In this document: one piece after another, positions 26,468 to 44,903 of the stretch
How positions within the stretch are numbered: the stretch's first letter is position 1
Layout: each line of letters begins with the position of its first letter
DNA from: a virus
Lineage: Duplodnaviria; Heunggongvirae; Uroviricota; Caudoviricetes
Length of the DNA stretch: 44,903 bases
Virus record (IMG/VR): IMGVR_UViG_2718217885_000015
Strand: one strand, 5' to 3'
The notes under the pieces: model-generated
What the model was told of the DNA's origin: nothing
Databases searched by the model: none
What the model saw: the letters and a program-made list of their open reading frames with translations, nothing else
Position numbers and translations under genes: made by a program

Positions 26468-26544
26468 TGGCGCGTTGTACTGGATTCGAACCAGTGACCG
26501 ATTGCTTAGAAGGCAATTGCTCTGTCCGACTGAGCTAACAACGC
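26468..26544 (-). tRNA. argO: tRNA-Arg (anticodon UCU)
   Basis: Folded by hand: acceptor GCGTTGT/ACAACGC, D-arm GCTC/GAGC, anticodon stem ATTGC/GCAAT with loop CTTCTAA, T-arm ACTGG-TTCGAAT-CCAGT, encoded CCA; 77 nt. Confidence 0.85.
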
Positions 26545-26557
26545 ATGATGCAGATAA

Positions 26558-26638
26558 TGGACCGCCATCGAGGACTCGAACCCCGCACCAACAACCCTGT
26601 TATCGTGTCGTCTGCTCTTCCTGATGAGCTAATGGCGG
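26558..26638 (-). tRNA. tRNA-like sequence with canonical acceptor, D- and T-arms but a non-canonical anticodon arm (possible pseudo-tRNA; argN-like position)
   Basis: Acceptor CCGCCAT/ATGGCGG, D-arm GCTC/GAGC, T-arm CGGGG-TTCGAGT-CCTCG and CCA are present, but the 27-nt region between D- and T-arms (GACGACACGATAACAGGGTTGTTGGTG) gave no standard 5-bp stem with 7-nt loop in my manual fold. Confidence 0.5.
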
Positions 26639-26645
26639 TATGTTA

Positions 26646-26721
26646 TGGTGGCCCTTGCTGGATTTGAACCAGCGACCTGGCGATTATGAGTCGCTCGCTC
26701 TCACCACTGAGCTAAAGGGCC
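26646..26721 (-). tRNA. ileZ: tRNA with anticodon CAU (Ile2/lysidine-type or Met; ileZ-like position)
   Basis: Acceptor GGCCCTT/AAGGGCC, anticodon loop CTCATAA, T-arm GCTGG-TTCAAAT-CCAGC, CCA encoded; 76 nt. Confidence 0.85.
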
Positions 26722-31855: not shown

Positions 31856-32251
31856 TTACCGAGTTGCTAATTTGCAACTCGCTTTTTCGTACTTACTGAT
31901 AGTGATCTCGACCTTACCTTCCGGGATAACCGGTCCCCACTCCACCAGCATTCTTTTCACCTGACTGTCGTCTTCCCACACCCCCGCGTGGGTCAGGGCG
32001 TCAAACAGCGCCTTGTTATAGTTGTCCAGATCGCGGATCCGGTTATCCGGAGGAAACAACACGATCTCCACTGAAGCAGGTGCCGACGTTGGTTTCGGCA
32101 GACGACGTAACTGCTCAACTATTGCTGCGCACGCCGCGCTCTGGAATTTTCGCCCCGCCGCGCTTATCAGGCTCTTACCAGCAAACGCCCCTTTGTTGGG
32201 GTGTCGCCAGTACGTGTTCACGCTGGGCGGGAAAGGCAGGATCAGCTTCAT
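31856..32251 (-). CDS. rusA: Holliday junction resolvase RusA
   Basis: 131 aa; conserved RDLDNYNKALFDALTHAGVWEDDSQV motif as in RusA. Confidence 0.85.
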   Translation of the reverse strand: MKLILPFPPSVNTYWRHPNKGAFAGKSLISAAGRKFQSAACAAIVEQLRRLPKPTSAPASVEIVLFPPDNRIRDLDNYNKALFDALTHAGVWEDDSQVKRMLVEWGPVIPEGKVEITISKYEKASCKLATR

Positions 32252-32574
32252 ACTTTCAGGCCTCTCTCATGTAACCAGTGAGTTGCACGCAGCCTTGCGT
32301 TTTCCTCACCGGCAAGCAGTGAGCGGATAATCCCGACCGCCTCGCTGTCGTCGTCCTTCATCGCAGTATGAAGCGTTATCCCCCGGGCCACACCACGCTT
32401 TATCGTGATGACGCCTTTTTTCTCCAGTGCGCGAAGATGCTCCACCGCTGCATTCACTGAACGGTATCCCAGCATGGTTGCCACCTCCTGATTGGTTGGC
32501 GGGAAGCCACGTTCTTGCTGGTAAGAAATCAGCATATCCAGCACCTGCTGCTGACATTGAGTTAACGTCGTCAT
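32248..32574 (-). CDS. LexA-like N-terminal winged-helix DNA-binding protein
   Basis: LTQCQQQVLDMLISYQQERGFPPTNQEVATMLGYRSVNAAVEHLRALEKKGVI resembles the LexA DNA-binding domain; no S24 peptidase domain; start ATG overlaps the stop of the upstream gene. Confidence 0.6.
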   Translation of the reverse strand: MTTLTQCQQQVLDMLISYQQERGFPPTNQEVATMLGYRSVNAAVEHLRALEKKGVITIKRGVARGITLHTAMKDDDSEAVGIIRSLLAGEENARLRATHWLHERGLKV

Positions 32575-33068
32575 TAAGCCCCCACGTAATTCCCTGACAG
32601 ATACCATTCATCACCCGATACAGCGCGCTTGCTGCTTTTCCGTAAGCACCGCTCACGACGCGCCAGAAAATTGTTTCGTTCTGGCTGGGAGTGGCTTTCA
32701 CGGAATGCCTCCATCCACACCGTTGCAGCTCGACGGAATAAGCCCCTGGACTCCAGTTCTTCAGCCTGGCGGGTCAGGCACAAAATCACCCGGGGGTCGT
32801 TAGTGCCGACATAGAAATTGCGCACAGGTCTGGTTTCACGAACAGATTGTGGTTCCGGCTCCTGCGCTCTCTCAGTCAGGCGCGGGAAATGTCTGCGTGT
32901 ATCTCCTTCACAACGGTGAGCCACACGCCCACTCTGACGTAACTTGCTTGCTGACTGCAGAACGCGCTGCCGTGAGTAACCAGCAAAAGCATCTGCAATG
33001 TCTCCGGAAGTACACCCCGGATGGGCTTCAATGAATTTCTGAACTTCATTCAAAAGACTCATAATCAC
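32574..33068 (-). CDS. PerC-family (Pch-like) transcriptional activator homologue with N-terminal extension
   Basis: 164 aa; motif LESRGLFRRAATVWMEAF matches the PerC/Pch signature (LE.KG.WRRAA..W) that I recall. Confidence 0.5.
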   Translation of the reverse strand: MIMSLLNEVQKFIEAHPGCTSGDIADAFAGYSRQRVLQSASKLRQSGRVAHRCEGDTRRHFPRLTERAQEPEPQSVRETRPVRNFYVGTNDPRVILCLTRQAEELESRGLFRRAATVWMEAFRESHSQPERNNFLARRERCLRKSSKRAVSGDEWYLSGNYVGA

Positions 33069-33883
33069 CCCCTGAATCCTGCCGGGATCTGGCTGTAGTC
33101 CACGTTGTCGTAACTGGCTTTGAAGTACGGGTCCTCGCGTCTGGCTGCAGATACTGCAGGAACTTCCCAGGATTCTTCGAAATGACGATCCGGACCAAAG
33201 AACGTGACAGCCTGTTTCACAAATTGTGTGCCGCTGTTACCCATCGCAGATACCCAGCCCGCGTAGCGTTTCACACCTTCCAGCATGGTTTCGGGGTTTA
33301 CCCCCTCATTCAAACGGGCTTTCCAGGCTTTGAAGGCTGCAGATTTTAAATTGCCACCAGCACGTTTGGGATAGGCCAGCCATGCCTGCTCAAACTCCGG
33401 AGAGTATTCCGGTCGGTTTGAACGAACTCGCACAGACTCATCAGCAGATGCACCAACAGCTATTGGTTCATTGACTGGTTCTTTGACTGGTTCAAAAGAG
33501 TGACTGGTTCTGGGTGAATCTCCTGCACTACCCCCTGGTGCAACTCCTGCACTACCTGGTGAATTTGCTGCACCAGATAGTGAATTATTTGCACTACCCC
33601 CTAGTGAATCTCCTGCACCATCAAGATGAAGGAGATAGATATTACTTGAGTTACCTTTTTCACCTTTCCGGGTGACTTTTTTTACCAGCCCGGACTCACA
33701 AAGGGCCGCAATATGATTCATCACAGAACGTTTGCTAATCTCGCACTGGTCAGCAATATGCTGGTAGCTGGGCCAGCACTCACCCTGATCGCTGGCATTA
33801 TCAGCCAGCTTGATCAGAACCAGTTTTCGCAATGGATTACCCACTCGAATTTTCATCGCTTTAACCATCAGCTCCATACTCAT
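33065..33883 (-). CDS. Putative replication initiation protein (O-like), N-terminal winged HTH plus Gly/Ser/Ala-rich linker
   Basis: 272 aa; HTH region (SYQHIADQCEISKRSVMNHIAALCESGLVKK), repeat-encoded linker, and a conserved C-terminus (YPKRAGGNLKSAAFKAWKARL) typical of prophage replication proteins. Confidence 0.55.
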   Translation of the reverse strand: MSMELMVKAMKIRVGNPLRKLVLIKLADNASDQGECWPSYQHIADQCEISKRSVMNHIAALCESGLVKKVTRKGEKGNSSNIYLLHLDGAGDSLGGSANNSLSGAANSPGSAGVAPGGSAGDSPRTSHSFEPVKEPVNEPIAVGASADESVRVRSNRPEYSPEFEQAWLAYPKRAGGNLKSAAFKAWKARLNEGVNPETMLEGVKRYAGWVSAMGNSGTQFVKQAVTFFGPDRHFEESWEVPAVSAARREDPYFKASYDNVDYSQIPAGFRG

Positions 33884-34104
33884 GCTGCACCTCCGAGATG
33901 CTTCATGTTTTTTCCGGAGCGAAAGGCTATAAGCGGCATACTGACGCGGTAATTACGGCCCAGCGGTTCACAAACCACCTTCTGACATTCACGGTCAACC
34001 AGGCTAACACGTAGAACATGCCCTGCAGGCGTGGTGTACCACTGACCCGGACGAGGACAACGGAAAGTCTGATTGGTAAAACGTTTGAAAATATTCCGGA
34101 TCAT
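33880..34104 (-). CDS. Hypothetical small protein
   Basis: 74-aa ORF, apparently coupled between Rha and the O-like gene. Confidence 0.4.
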   Translation of the reverse strand: MIRNIFKRFTNQTFRCPRPGQWYTTPAGHVLRVSLVDRECQKVVCEPLGRNYRVSMPLIAFRSGKNMKHLGGAA

Positions 34105-34646
34105 TTGCGCCCCCTTACCTCTGAAGAGTTCAGCGACGAATGAATAAGACGGGCAAGAAATGCCGCATCGTTAATTCGGTCATACAGACTTACAGCCAGC
34201 GGTGATTCAGCTTTTTCCAGCATGGGATAAAGCTGCTGCAACCAGACCTGATGAATTGATGAAATGTAGGAATAGAGTACGCTGGCGTTATGTGCAACGT
34301 CGCTCGGTACAGCGGGCTTTGAAAGCTGTTTCTCCATCTGGTTAAAGGCATTGATGTATGCCTCTTTGAACTGGGCAGCACGTTTACCCGTGAAACCCAT
34401 AGCAAGAAACGCAAAACCGTCGCGGGTTATTTGATAGCAAGGTAGTTTGCGGCCTGATGCGTCGATGTACTCACTGGGCTGAAAATTCAGCTCAATAAAT
34501 TCGGCAGAGCATTCAAGAGACGCAATTTTTTGAATGACGTTTTTGTGTTGTTTGCCAAAATAACTAGCAACAGCCAGAGAAGAAGTAACAACTTTGCCTG
34601 CAATAATGCAAAGTTCAGGTTGTACTAAGGCAGGGATCGTAGCCAT
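34101..34646 (-). CDS. rha: Rha-family phage regulatory protein
   Basis: Start at MATIPALVQPEL with a GGAGG ribosome-binding site 8 nt upstream; Rha signature region (GKVVTSSLAVASYFGKQHKNVIQKI...YQITRDGFAFLAMGFTGKRAAQFKEAYINAFNQME). Confidence 0.7.
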   Translation of the reverse strand: MATIPALVQPELCIIAGKVVTSSLAVASYFGKQHKNVIQKIASLECSAEFIELNFQPSEYIDASGRKLPCYQITRDGFAFLAMGFTGKRAAQFKEAYINAFNQMEKQLSKPAVPSDVAHNASVLYSYISSIHQVWLQQLYPMLEKAESPLAVSLYDRINDAAFLARLIHSSLNSSEVRGRK

Positions 34647-34649
34647 GAT

Positions 34650-35249
34650 GGCAGCCTCCGTATGCAATGGATAACTTCCACCACCGGAAACGCCAATTTC
34701 GCTGGTGGTGAACTGAGCAGGGTTGGCGTAACCGGCGCATACGGAAACCGGCGCACCTTTCGGTGCCCCCACCCAGCCCACCATAATTTGGGTATAGCTG
34801 AGTTGTAGCAACAAAAAAGACGCTAACGCGCCAATTGTCGCCGTATGCAATTCCAGGACGCCAATCCCGGCACCCGCTTTATAAGGTGCCTGAACAGTGT
34901 AACGTCCCGGAATGGCAGAATCAATGTGCTGGTGGTCCTTCACACTCAACAAAATCACGCCTGAATTTCCACAAAGGGCTAAAGCACTCATGCGGGTAGT
35001 CTTTGCGAAGATAGATAACGCGCTGTGTTTCTGGCTCCCAACGAATAACATGAACATAAAGTCCTCTTCCGTCACGAAACCAGCGGTTAAGTTCCTGCAC
35101 AACTCGCCACCCACAGTCAGGTAAAGTTCTCTGTGGTTACTTACAGCCAGGAGATTTGGTAATCTGCATTCATGCCGTAACAACAGGTGTTCAGCGACCC
35201 TGACCACCAGCTGTTGCGACAAACGGTTATTTGCCGTTAAACTGTTCAT
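34650..35249 (-). CDS. Uncertain: upstream in-frame part of the 382-aa ORF (separate gene, N-terminal domain of a longer Rha protein, or non-coding)
   Basis: In-frame ORF continuing upstream of the Rha start; its ATG at 35249 overlaps the stop of the cII-like gene, which suggests coupling, but the sequence has no recognisable domain. Confidence 0.25.
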
Positions 35250-41916: not shown

Positions 41917-43512
41917 ATGGCTGAAGCAGCAAAAAAAACTCCACAAAAGCTGAATGAAAAAAAAGGCTCAACATCGGCATCATCACTTGAGATTGTGAAT
42001 TCACGACAATCAAAAGATATTTATCTTGGATTGTGTGGATATGTTGGATGTGGCATGAGAACGATAAACAAAATTATCGAAGAGATATCCAAAGAATGGG
42101 GGTATAATGTTGTACACATCCGCATAAGTGCGCTTATGGAAAACCCATTATATTTTGAGCCAGCAGCACTGAAGGTATCCGAAAGCACACAAGTTAATAG
42201 ACATTTAAAACTCCAGGATATTGCCAATAAACTTCGTAAACATTACAAAAAAAATGAGTTGCTTGCAGAAGCTGCTATTGCAGCAATCGCAGCAGAGAAA
42301 AATAATATTGATTATAATAATGATGAATATAAAGGTACTGTCTTCATCATTGATCAATTCAAAAGGCCGGAAGAAATAGAGTTATTCAGAGTTATATATC
42401 AGCATAATTTCTATTTGTTAGGAGTTTTGCGCGATTTAGATTACCGAATTCCGAATCTCATTGATGACGAATCGACAAAGAACGACCTTCATTTAATTAT
42501 CAATATTGATAATAAATCCTCTGATCCGTATGGACAAAGAACCGGGGAGACCATTCTTGATTCAGATTTTTTTATTAAAAATAACTTCAGCCAAAAAAGT
42601 GAATTAAAGAAGAAGATTGATCGGTTTTTCGGTCTTATTCATGGCAAAAATGGTTTAACACCAACTTTTAACGAGAAAGGTATGTATGCTGCCTTTTCAA
42701 CATCATTACAATCAGCTTGTTTATCACGTCAAGTAGGGGCTGCACTGTTTGATGATGAAGGGAATTTGCTTGCCGTGGGTAAGAACGACGTACCTAAAGC
42801 TGGTGGCGGGTTGTATAGCAGTGATGATTTTGATAACGATCATCGATGCGTTCACAAAAGTGGTAAGTGTTATAATGATGCAAACAAGCTAAAAATTAAA
42901 GACCGTATAAAAAGCATATTATCAACCGAAGTAAGAACTGTATTAGGTATTTCCGCAGGACAAACTGTTGCCGATATTAATATAACACGACTTCTAAACA
43001 AATTAGATAATATTGCAGAAGGCATTTACAAAGACAGCAAAATATCAAGTGTAATGGAGTACTCCAGATCAATTCATGCTGAAATGGACGTCATTACATC
43101 AATGGCTAGAAAACAAAACGGCGATACTAAAGATAAAATTCTTTTTACGACAACCTATCCCTGCCACAACTGTGCAAGGCATATTGTCGCAGCTGGAATA
43201 AAAAAAGTAGTATATATAGAGCCATTTGATAAAAGCCTTGCTCTTGATCTGCATAATGATGCAATAACAAAGAACGAAGAATCTTCCAAAGTAATATTTT
43301 GTGATTTTGAGGGGGTATCACCCCGCCGCTACCATAAATTTTTTAGACCAACGGATGAACGTAAAGATGATAAAACAGGGGCTGCAAATAAATTTAATGC
43401 TCGCTACAAAAATCATATAGATGTTCAATATCTTGATGATTATAGAAAGTATGAGACTGTTGTAGCTAAGAAATTTATAAACGAGATTGCTAAACCAGAG
43501 TCTCAGCCATAA
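41917..43512 (+). CDS. Two-domain deoxycytidylate/dCTP deaminase-like protein (AvcD/DcdV-like): N-terminal kinase-like region plus C-terminal CMP/dCMP deaminase domain
   Basis: 531 aa; C-terminal zinc-binding deaminase signature HAEMDVI...(26 aa)...PCHNCARHIVAAGIKKVVYIEP, preceded by ACLSRQVGAALFDDEGNLLAVGKND; N-terminal glycine-rich GLCGYVGCGMRT and Walker-B-like VFIIDQF; markedly AT-rich against the flanking phage DNA. Confidence 0.7.
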   Translation: MAEAAKKTPQKLNEKKGSTSASSLEIVNSRQSKDIYLGLCGYVGCGMRTINKIIEEISKEWGYNVVHIRISALMENPLYFEPAALKVSESTQVNRHLKLQDIANKLRKHYKKNELLAEAAIAAIAAEKNNIDYNNDEYKGTVFIIDQFKRPEEIELFRVIYQHNFYLLGVLRDLDYRIPNLIDDESTKNDLHLIINIDNKSSDPYGQRTGETILDSDFFIKNNFSQKSELKKKIDRFFGLIHGKNGLTPTFNEKGMYAAFSTSLQSACLSRQVGAALFDDEGNLLAVGKNDVPKAGGGLYSSDDFDNDHRCVHKSGKCYNDANKLKIKDRIKSILSTEVRTVLGISAGQTVADINITRLLNKLDNIAEGIYKDSKISSVMEYSRSIHAEMDVITSMARKQNGDTKDKILFTTTYPCHNCARHIVAAGIKKVVYIEPFDKSLALDLHNDAITKNEESSKVIFCDFEGVSPRRYHKFFRPTDERKDDKTGAANKFNARYKNHIDVQYLDDYRKYETVVAKKFINEIAKPESQP

Positions 43513-43664: not shown

Positions 43665-44903
43665 TTATTCAATAGGCTGTCTGTTGGAACCTAAATTAGT
43701 GTAAGTAAGAATCGAATCAACCCTATCCCACCATGCCTGATAGGCTTTACGCTGTTCTTCTAGATAATCGCTCTTATCATAAACTTGCCATACCCCTGGC
43801 AGTTTATGACCGAGCATTATTTCAGCAATATGAGGCGCAGTAAGATCAGAAAAGTTTGTTCGTGCTGTTCGTCTCAAATCATGAAGAGACCAATGAGGAA
43901 ATTGATACCCCAAACGCCGCCATGCGTACTGCATTAAATTGTAAGGCAGCGACTGCAATGATGTCCGACCAACTGGCTCCTTGCTTCCTTCCTTGGTAAA
44001 AAGCATATCGGAACCGTTGTTCATAGAGATAACGTATTTTATAAGCTCTTCAACCGGTTCAATAATGGGGCGCTTTAGCGGTTCGCCTGTTATATCACCT
44101 GTCTTATGTCGTTCTGGCGGTACAGTCCATACCTTATTAATGAAATCAAAATCATCCATCCTGGCAGTAATCAGCTCTGAACTACGACAGCCGAAATGCA
44201 GCAATAGTTTAATGAAGGCCCGGTATTTGGGAACCATTCGAGAACCATCGATCGCAGCATAAAGGATTTTAATTTCATCGTGTGTCAGAAACCGTTTCTT
44301 CTGACCTTTACGGATATCCATATCTTTACCCGTGATATCCGACAGAGGGCGAGTTTCAATGAGCTTTCTCTTATACGCCCAGACATGGGCCTGCTTTGCG
44401 TTAATTAGCAATCGGTCTGCTATTGCTGGAGTCTTAGTGCTAAGAGGCTCCAGGACCTCTAACCAATCATGCAATGTAGCTACATCGTGAGGGATAATCC
44501 CGATTTTAGAGAACAGGTGCAGTTCAAATGAGCGGAGTATCTGCTCAGAACCTTTTTTATTTTTTACACAATATGCGTCATACCAGGCACGGATCACAGA
44601 CTCCACCGTCATGGCTTCAGTAGCTTTGCGTTTTTCTGCCTGCTTGACCAATCGTGGATTGCGGTTTGACTCGAGTTCACCACGAAGACGGATAACTTCT
44701 TCTCTGGCCTCTTTTAGTCCAGTTGCCGGGTAAGTTCCGATATCAAGACGCTCACCTTTCCCTGCCCATTGATAACGATATTGGAACACTACGCGACCTT
44801 TCGGTGATACTCTGACAGACAGACCATCCCGATCTGATTTAACCAAAACCTTATCACGTTCCTTTCCAACGACTGAACGCAACCACGCATCAGAAAGCGC
44901 CAT
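43665..44903 (-). CDS. int: P4-type tyrosine integrase
   Basis: 412 aa; N-terminal MALSDAWLRS...GLSVRVSPKGRVVFQYRYQW typical of P4-family integrases; C-terminal catalytic region (HDLRRT...GH...Y); ATG at the last base of the window, so complete but with no upstream sequence. Confidence 0.9.
   Translation of the reverse strand: MALSDAWLRSVVGKERDKVLVKSDRDGLSVRVSPKGRVVFQYRYQWAGKGERLDIGTYPATGLKEAREEVIRLRGELESNRNPRLVKQAEKRKATEAMTVESVIRAWYDAYCVKNKKGSEQILRSFELHLFSKIGIIPHDVATLHDWLEVLEPLSTKTPAIADRLLINAKQAHVWAYKRKLIETRPLSDITGKDMDIRKGQKKRFLTHDEIKILYAAIDGSRMVPKYRAFIKLLLHFGCRSSELITARMDDFDFINKVWTVPPERHKTGDITGEPLKRPIIEPVEELIKYVISMNNGSDMLFTKEGSKEPVGRTSLQSLPYNLMQYAWRRLGYQFPHWSLHDLRRTARTNFSDLTAPHIAEIMLGHKLPGVWQVYDKSDYLEEQRKAYQAWWDRVDSILTYTNLGSNRQPIE

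Follow-up and report, generated by a model that had tools for sequence, protein, structure and literature searches.

A YfdN-type protein of the PerC family encoded beside the replication initiator of a lambdoid prophage

Among PerC-family regulators, activation of LEE1/ler in the enterocyte effacement locus (LEE) has been shown in reporter assays only for PerC of enteropathogenic Escherichia coli (EPEC) and PchA-C of enterohaemorrhagic E. coli (EHEC) (PMC5931665; activation of LEE1 also in PMC4764244). PchD did not activate ler, and the rise in ler activity with PchE stayed below two-fold (PMC5931665); PchE has a repressive effect on csgD and a positive one on flagella (PMC6265319, PMC7369912), and a PerC-family protein of a phage-inducible chromosomal island (PICI) silences LEE1, for which an ANR-like action has been suggested (PMC11773190). 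Members of the family therefore differ in the direction of their effect, which ranges from activation through little or none to repression. Pch binds DNA and lowers the occupancy of H-NS at LEE1, an effect that is lost when H-NS and StpA are absent (PMC4764244), and ANR proteins are described as acting on AggR and H-NS through direct protein-protein contact (PMC5570504, PMC10148876). The yfdN gene has been called "the K12 unique PerC homologue" and, as a safeguard, was removed from a strain carrying a ler reporter (PMC5931665); it is also listed in a glycogen-phenotype overexpression screen (PMC2853380) and in a nitric-oxide transcriptome of uropathogenic E. coli (PMC5320621), and it lies within a five-gene region that induces filamentation (PMC6206680). 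Here, we analyzed a YfdN-type gene of the PerC family at 32574..33068 on the minus strand of IMG/VR virus record IMGVR_UViG_2718217885_000015, a stretch of 44,903 nucleotides of Caudoviricetes DNA that is referred to as a whole as the window.

The open reading frame (ORF) list gives a 164-aa frame with a GTG start at 33068 and a TAA stop at 32574-32576. Since a Shine-Dalgarno sequence (AGGGGG) ends 5 nt before the ATG at 33062 and nearly all homologues begin there (MSL), this ATG is probably the actual start (MSLL...), giving 162 aa; residue numbers below refer to the 164-aa frame. The gene is 100% identical at the nucleotide level to GJ12_RS27745 of E. coli 09-00049; RefSeq calls the product (WP_001364121.1) a "PerC family transcriptional regulator", and at the 99.4% identity level the gene name is yfdN. 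PHROG 1324 ('transcriptional activator') matched residues 2-163 from end to end, including the N-terminal domain (E=1.4e-78). We therefore assign the ORF with near certainty to the YfdN type, represented by E. coli K-12 CPS-53, orf40 of SfV and mEp460. The assignment to the PerC family is already on record in RefSeq and in the literature (PMC5931665) and is not new.

Sequence comparison identifies the window protein as a genuine PerC/Pch homologue, with similarity far above chance. An earlier note on this DNA, made from the sequence alone, had recognized a PerC/Pch signature in the motif LESRGLFRRAATVW (residues 105-118, nt 32715-32756), and this was borne out: the protein matched the Pfam PerC family (PF06069) with 38 bits (gathering score 22.6 bits; E=2.1e-9, residues 100-153), and hhalign aligned a profile built from 35 diverse relatives with a profile of eight PerC/Pch proteins over 56 columns (98.9% probability, E=1.2e-17). 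All 35 of these aligned relatives also match PF06069 in their PerC core. The same note had proposed alignment with PerC/Pch beyond the short motif as a check, and about 56 aa do align, compared with the 14 aa of the motif. In BLASTP comparisons, the best single classical match was PchE of the Sakai strain (40% over 52 aa, E=3e-10); a group-1 Pch of EDL933 (38% over 50 aa) and PerC of EPEC E2348/69, encoded on pMAR2 (32% over 56 aa, E=6e-8), also matched, and the similarity to PchD was weak. Eleven columns (A102, L105, E106, G109, R112, R113, A114, W118, R131, R138, and C141) are invariant in an alignment of PerC, one group-1 Pch, PchD, PchE, and the window protein. The possibility that the window gene is pchD or pchE itself was ruled out, as the published cloning primers for both genes (PMC5931665) have no match in the window.

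The homology is confined to the core. Only positions 5-58 of the 90 profile positions of PF06069 were matched, and neither alignment nor Pfam found in the window protein the C-terminal third that is common to PerC and PchA-E (profile positions ~59-90, ...MG...FR.Y). When the PerC family is defined by a full-length single domain of ~90-105 aa with this C-terminal segment, the window protein falls outside it. The core was also recognized by the NCBIfam ANR model NF033650 (ANR_neg_reg; residues 98-144, E=6e-5), with a score of 22.8 bits that lies under the curated cut-off of 32 bits and hence outside ANR membership. At E<=0.01, this model detected 24 of the 35 YfdN-type relatives and seven of the eight PerC/Pch proteins. 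Because one model recognizes the core in both groups, PerC and ANR have one small helical module in common.

The architecture of the protein was drawn from the alignment of the 35 relatives (identity down to 23%) and two AlphaFold models. Residues 3-62 (32883..33062, minus strand) are modelled with pLDDT (predicted local distance difference test) values above 90 and comprise helices at 5-15, 21-27, and 33-46 followed by a beta hairpin at 49-62. By its predicted fold this domain is a winged helix of the MarR/BlaI-MecI/ArsR-like kind and a putative DNA binder. The family profile matched the DNA-binding domain of BlaI (1p6r, E=4.8e-4), as well as MarR, MecI, and PapI, and Foldseek superposed the domain on the wings of ArsR, MarR, and BlaI proteins with root-mean-square deviations of 1.4-2.9 A. 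No Pfam family of winged helix-turn-helix domains reached its threshold for the window protein, and weak matches were seen in one to five relatives only; a fold search of BFVD gave only generic winged-helix matches, and a search of the Protein Data Bank by the single window sequence gave no real relative. Residues 63-91 (32796..32882, minus strand) form a linker that is gapped and variable in length in the family alignment and has pLDDT values of 51-75; it is probably disordered. The N-terminal extension of 60 aa described in the earlier note thus needs revision: the region with no counterpart in PerC is about 95 aa long and consists of the folded winged helix plus the linker.

The PerC/ANR-like core that carries the motif occupies residues 92-146 (32631..32795, minus strand) and consists of three helices that resemble a tetratricopeptide repeat (TPR) in the AlphaFold model and in fold comparison. 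It is followed by a C-terminal tail of low pLDDT (residues 147-164, 32577..32630, minus strand) with the motif W-Y-L-S-G-N-Y-V-G at residues 155-163 (nt 32580-32606). Across the family the consensus of this tail is W-x-L-[AS]-G-x-Y-x-G, in which G159 and G163 are nearly invariant in the 35 relatives, and it is not present in PerC/Pch, whose C-terminal segment differs. Five short proteins of 77-92 aa (P0193, P0201, P0207, P0182, and P0197) combine a PerC core with a YfdN-type tail (W.LAG.F.G) but lack a winged helix, so that the tail marks out a PerC subfamily without regard to the N-terminal domain. Both domains of the window protein are net basic, as counted directly on the sequence.

The window gene was found in 2667 of 5426 complete E. 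coli genomes, mostly at 95-99% identity, which places it among the commonest prophage genes of this species, with a presence in roughly half of the genomes. It is carried by mEp460, SfV (orf40), SfIV, 2H10, and many Stx2c phages, as well as by Shigella and Salmonella phages. To our knowledge, most of its hosts, including those of K-12-type, Shigella, and Salmonella elements, lack LEE. Near-identical yfdN genes occur in 49 records of the phage collection, and IMG/VR holds 80 loci with yfdN genes at least 96% identical to the window gene. When 1.84 billion representative proteins were searched exhaustively, no more than 103 matches came up, among which about two dozen are full-length relatives at 27-47% identity. 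Searching IMG/VR with a divergent member (P0147) gave no matches, and searching it with the initiator protein of the window gave near-identical loci only. A 462-aa repeat protein with six matches (P0210) was discarded as a chance likeness of its repeated ELEARGFF...AW motif. According to PADLOC, the window protein matches no defence system.

The window is a lambdoid prophage in which the early genes run in the order ymfK (a LexA-type cI, divergent), ymfT (cro-like), ymfL, DUF4222, Rha/Ash, a 74-aa ORF, the replication initiator, the window gene, a 108-aa protein consisting of a LexA DNA-binding domain only, RusA, KilA-N, DUF968, and Q. The initiator (33065..33883, minus strand) has an HTH_36 N-terminus and a Phg_2220_C/DnaD-like C-terminus according to Pfam, and matched PHROG 270 ('replication initiation protein') with E=1e-87. 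Its stop codon overlaps the GTG start of the window gene (GTGA) and is separated by 2 nt from the ATG at 33062 (TGA-TT-ATG). Immediately downstream, the ATG of the LexA-type gene (32248..32574, minus strand; Pfam LexA_DNA_bind, E=3e-19, and RefSeq) overlaps the stop of the window gene (TAATG), and the RusA resolvase gene comes next (31856..32251, minus strand; Pfam RusA, E=6e-15, and synteny). The LexA-type protein lacks a protease domain and, together with RusA, is a steady neighbour of the yfdN-type gene across distant phages. Neither within the window gene nor around it was a promoter-like site found on the strand of the gene. Given this and the overlapping junctions, the gene belongs to the pR-type early-right transcript made on induction or infection, in line with the early-right operon proposed in the earlier note: it lies between a replication gene and Q in a lambdoid prophage. 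With regard to the upstream part of this operon, the mechanically called 382-aa ORF with Ash and Rha domains (34101-35249, minus strand) has an ambiguous start, because RefSeq annotates in its place an overlapping DUF4222 gene and a shorter gene of the Rha family.

This arrangement is deeply conserved, and the YfdN-type gene counts as a delayed-early gene within one lambdoid phage class. The order cI, cro, cII-like gene, initiator, YfdN-type gene, optional methylase, LexA DNA-binding-domain gene, RusA, DUF968, and Q was found in lineages P0166, P0175, P0192, P0130, and P0212, and synteny around YfdN-type genes holds in lineages down to 27% identity; short contigs of P0160, P0153, and P0169 show parts of the order. 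In the first five lineages the stop of the initiator overlaps or nearly abuts the start of the YfdN-type gene. Two exceptions were observed. In the P0147 lineage (L187, 790-4075 and 10001-10480), the YfdN-type gene follows a type I methylase/specificity pair just upstream of Q, and the phage itself encodes an initiator, a DnaC-like protein, and a DnaB-like protein. In P0185, the gene resides in a PICI-like element, away from any initiator.

A second conserved feature is found at the end of the initiator. A C-terminal tail of ~24 aa, REDPYFKASYDNVDYSQIPAGFRG (33068..33139, minus strand), travels with the yfdN-type gene; the comparison covered the window and loci L112, L115, L010, L011, L013, L016, L101, L104, and L105. 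Three types of initiator precede near-identical yfdN genes, with lengths of 272 aa (the window), 313 aa (~30% identity), and 330 aa (another N-terminus), and all of them end in REDPYFKASYDNVDYSQIP[AV]GFRG. Initiators before distant family members have a related ending, Y..[VI][DN]Y..[IVL]P..GFR[GQST], written with different codons. The tail is carried by 57 records of the phage collection, whose counts by organism name match the 49 records with near-identical yfdN plus six Salmonella records (ST64B type) and two named 'Enterobacteria phage', one of which is mEp390. The initiators of phiP27, Stx2_95, and the P0147 phage, which have DnaC-like and DnaB-like genes downstream, are devoid of the tail, and the O protein of PhiR5_2, followed by DnaC only, keeps just IPPGFRG. 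The GF-R stretch of the tail overlaps the downstream gene's Shine-Dalgarno sequence, and the tail sits at a mosaic junction; hitch-hiking is therefore a sufficient explanation for the linkage. Within the initiator gene, iteron-like direct repeats (33464..33618), comprising five copies of GTGNANYTNNTGCAC and three copies of TGACTGGTTCT, probably make up the origin of the phage, by analogy with lambda O.

With regard to function, we tentatively favour, at a likelihood somewhat short of even, the reading that the YfdN-type protein acts in early lytic growth as a DNA-bound modulator of complexes of nucleoid proteins (H-NS type) or of regulators. The winged helix would tether the protein to DNA, and the PerC/ANR core would remodel nucleoid-protein complexes, by analogy with the Pch model in which H-NS, StpA, and Hha are displaced at target promoters. 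As with Pch and ANR proteins, silencing might thereby be relieved or transcription tuned on phage DNA, and incidentally on host DNA, during lytic development. The P0147 lineage, which keeps the gene near Q in the presence of a full initiator/DnaC-like/DnaB-like set, argues for a regulatory role separate from replication.

The position of the gene suggests a different role, in which the protein would be a replication accessory factor that works with the initiator and takes the position at which other lambdoid modules have P or DnaC; its TPR-like core would dock on the initiator tail and its winged helix would touch either DNA of the origin or a replication protein of the host. In the window and in the five lineages with the conserved order, the gene comes directly after the initiator with no helicase or loader gene on the contigs that extend from initiator to Q, and an overlapping junction of this kind is also present on the short contigs of P0160 and P0169. 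Initiators with a Phg_2220_C domain that have no YfdN-type neighbour are followed instead by a DnaC-like gene, and then by a DnaB-like gene in phiP27 and Stx2_95. The shared REDPYFKASYDNVDYSQIP[AV]GFRG ending of the three initiator types, the related tails of distant lineages in different codons, the iterons ~450 bp upstream, and the primase and single-stranded DNA-binding protein (SSB) genes that also adjoin PchE in Sakai Sp7 are all compatible with such a role. However, the P0147 initiator has no tail and comes with its own DnaC/DnaB set, yet the YfdN-type gene is retained by Q; the PICI-like element carries the gene away from an initiator; the O protein of PhiR5_2 ends in IPPGFRG, yet a DnaC gene comes next; and GF-R overlaps the downstream Shine-Dalgarno sequence, so that the tail may be no more than a hitch-hiker at a mosaic junction. 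Moreover, the protein shows no similarity to known loaders (lambda P, DnaC/IstB-like), no ATPase motifs, and no Pfam match other than PerC. We consider this role unlikely. A more specific version, in which YfdN-type proteins would be the unrecognized second component of 'initiator-only' lambdoid replication modules, with the core on the tail (consensus Y-x-x-V-D-Y-x-x-I-P-x-G-F-R-G, on otherwise unrelated initiators) and the winged helix on origin DNA or on host DnaB/DnaC, seems quite doubtful; if it were true, the PerC/ANR fold would gain a role in DNA replication.

Alternatively, the core might sequester an AraC/XylS-type regulator, the LexA-type neighbour, or a phage regulator, so that the protein would repress as an ANR-like anti-activator rather than activate. 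The NF033650 match, the detection of 24 of the 35 relatives by the same model, the suggested ANR-like silencing of LEE1 by the PICI protein (PMC11773190), the repression of csgD by PchE (PMC6265319), and a TPR-like fold suited to protein binding all point in this direction. The score of the window protein under the curated cut-off, the added winged helix on what is a single-domain protein below 10 kDa in the ANR family, and the lack of any AraC-type partner encoded nearby count against it, and we regard it as rather improbable. In the favoured reading, as a modulator of nucleoid-protein complexes, the protein is not a dedicated LEE activator. The earlier note had raised a possible link between prophage induction and host gene regulation, which, taken as Pch-like activation of ler/LEE or of other virulence genes of the host, could draw on the true PerC/Pch homology of the core, the LEE1 activation by PerC and PchA-C, and the location in an SOS-inducible operon behind the LexA-type cI (ymfK). 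Such a virulence link is not supported and appears very improbable, as the gene is present in about half of E. coli, with CPS-53 of the K-12 type among its carriers, and in phages of Shigella and Salmonella, Pch proteins outside group 1 do not activate ler appreciably, the PICI homologue represses, and the C-terminal third of PerC and all five Pch proteins is missing. The window gene should thus not be read as a virulence regulator, and its annotation is correct but routine.

Several other features of the window were observed. Positions 2100-44903 align with the 09-00049 prophage at 99.9% in one BLAST segment; an exact match of the whole window was rejected, as the first ~2.1 kb (positions 1-2099, at the prophage's tail-fibre end) did not align, which may represent a mosaic difference in that region. 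At ~41917-43512 (plus strand), the near-identical prophage in RefSeq has a defence gene, 'anti-phage dCTP deaminase', beside a tyrosine integrase gene (~43665-44903, minus strand) that extends to the end of the window. Downstream of Q and a DNA methyltransferase gene, tRNA genes are located at 26468-26721 (minus strand; Arg-tct and Met-cat according to ARAGORN; Ile, 'OTHER', and Arg in RefSeq), a layout which we take to resemble the Q-tRNA-stx region of Stx phages, although stx itself is not among the annotated genes; genes of the TerB family and DUF3927 come next.

The additions made here to what is known of the family are modest and comprise the two-domain architecture, the common PerC/ANR core, the deep synteny with the initiator, and the travelling tail. 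The domain layout, the fixed place by the initiator, and this tail make the common YfdN-type protein tractable, and studying it could reveal the use that phages themselves make of the PerC/ANR fold. Compared with PerC (EPEC pEAF) and PchA/B/C (EHEC prophages), which are likewise carried by mobile elements, the window protein has a homologous core of ~56 aa at 32-38% identity, together with an additional winged helix and linker and a tail that differs, whereas PerC/Pch proteins have a single domain and 89-104 aa. Unlike the window gene, neither perC, which belongs to the perABC operon, nor the group-1 Pch gene, which follows lysis genes in the one copy considered (EDL933 record), is located in an early operon. 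PchE and PchD differ from the window protein in being single-domain proteins of 89-90 aa with a classical C-terminus, and PchE resembles it in being encoded in the replication region of a mobile element, Sakai Sp7. In this satellite-like element (L004, 11103-12044), a primase gene, a small ORF, and an SSB gene are followed directly by pchE. The ANR family (Aar, Rnr, and Cnr) has the same three-helix core that is detectable in the window protein, but its members are smaller than 10 kDa, lack a DNA-binding domain, and have AraC/XylS regulators as partners (PMC4038620), in contrast to the 164 aa and two domains found here. The closest likeness is to YfdN of K-12 CPS-53, Orf40 of SfV, and their counterparts in mEp460, SfIV, and Stx2c phages (PHROG 1324), which have 95-100% identity, equal length, and the same two-domain layout; Sb43 of ST64B is a more distant relative of this type. 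A K-12-like truncated version has an upstream initiator cut to 122 aa, and in YfdN-type records with an intact initiator the gene occupies the same place after it as in the window. What differs is the downstream neighbour, which is Dam or another methylase in SfV and mEp460 and directly the LexA DNA-binding-domain gene in the window.
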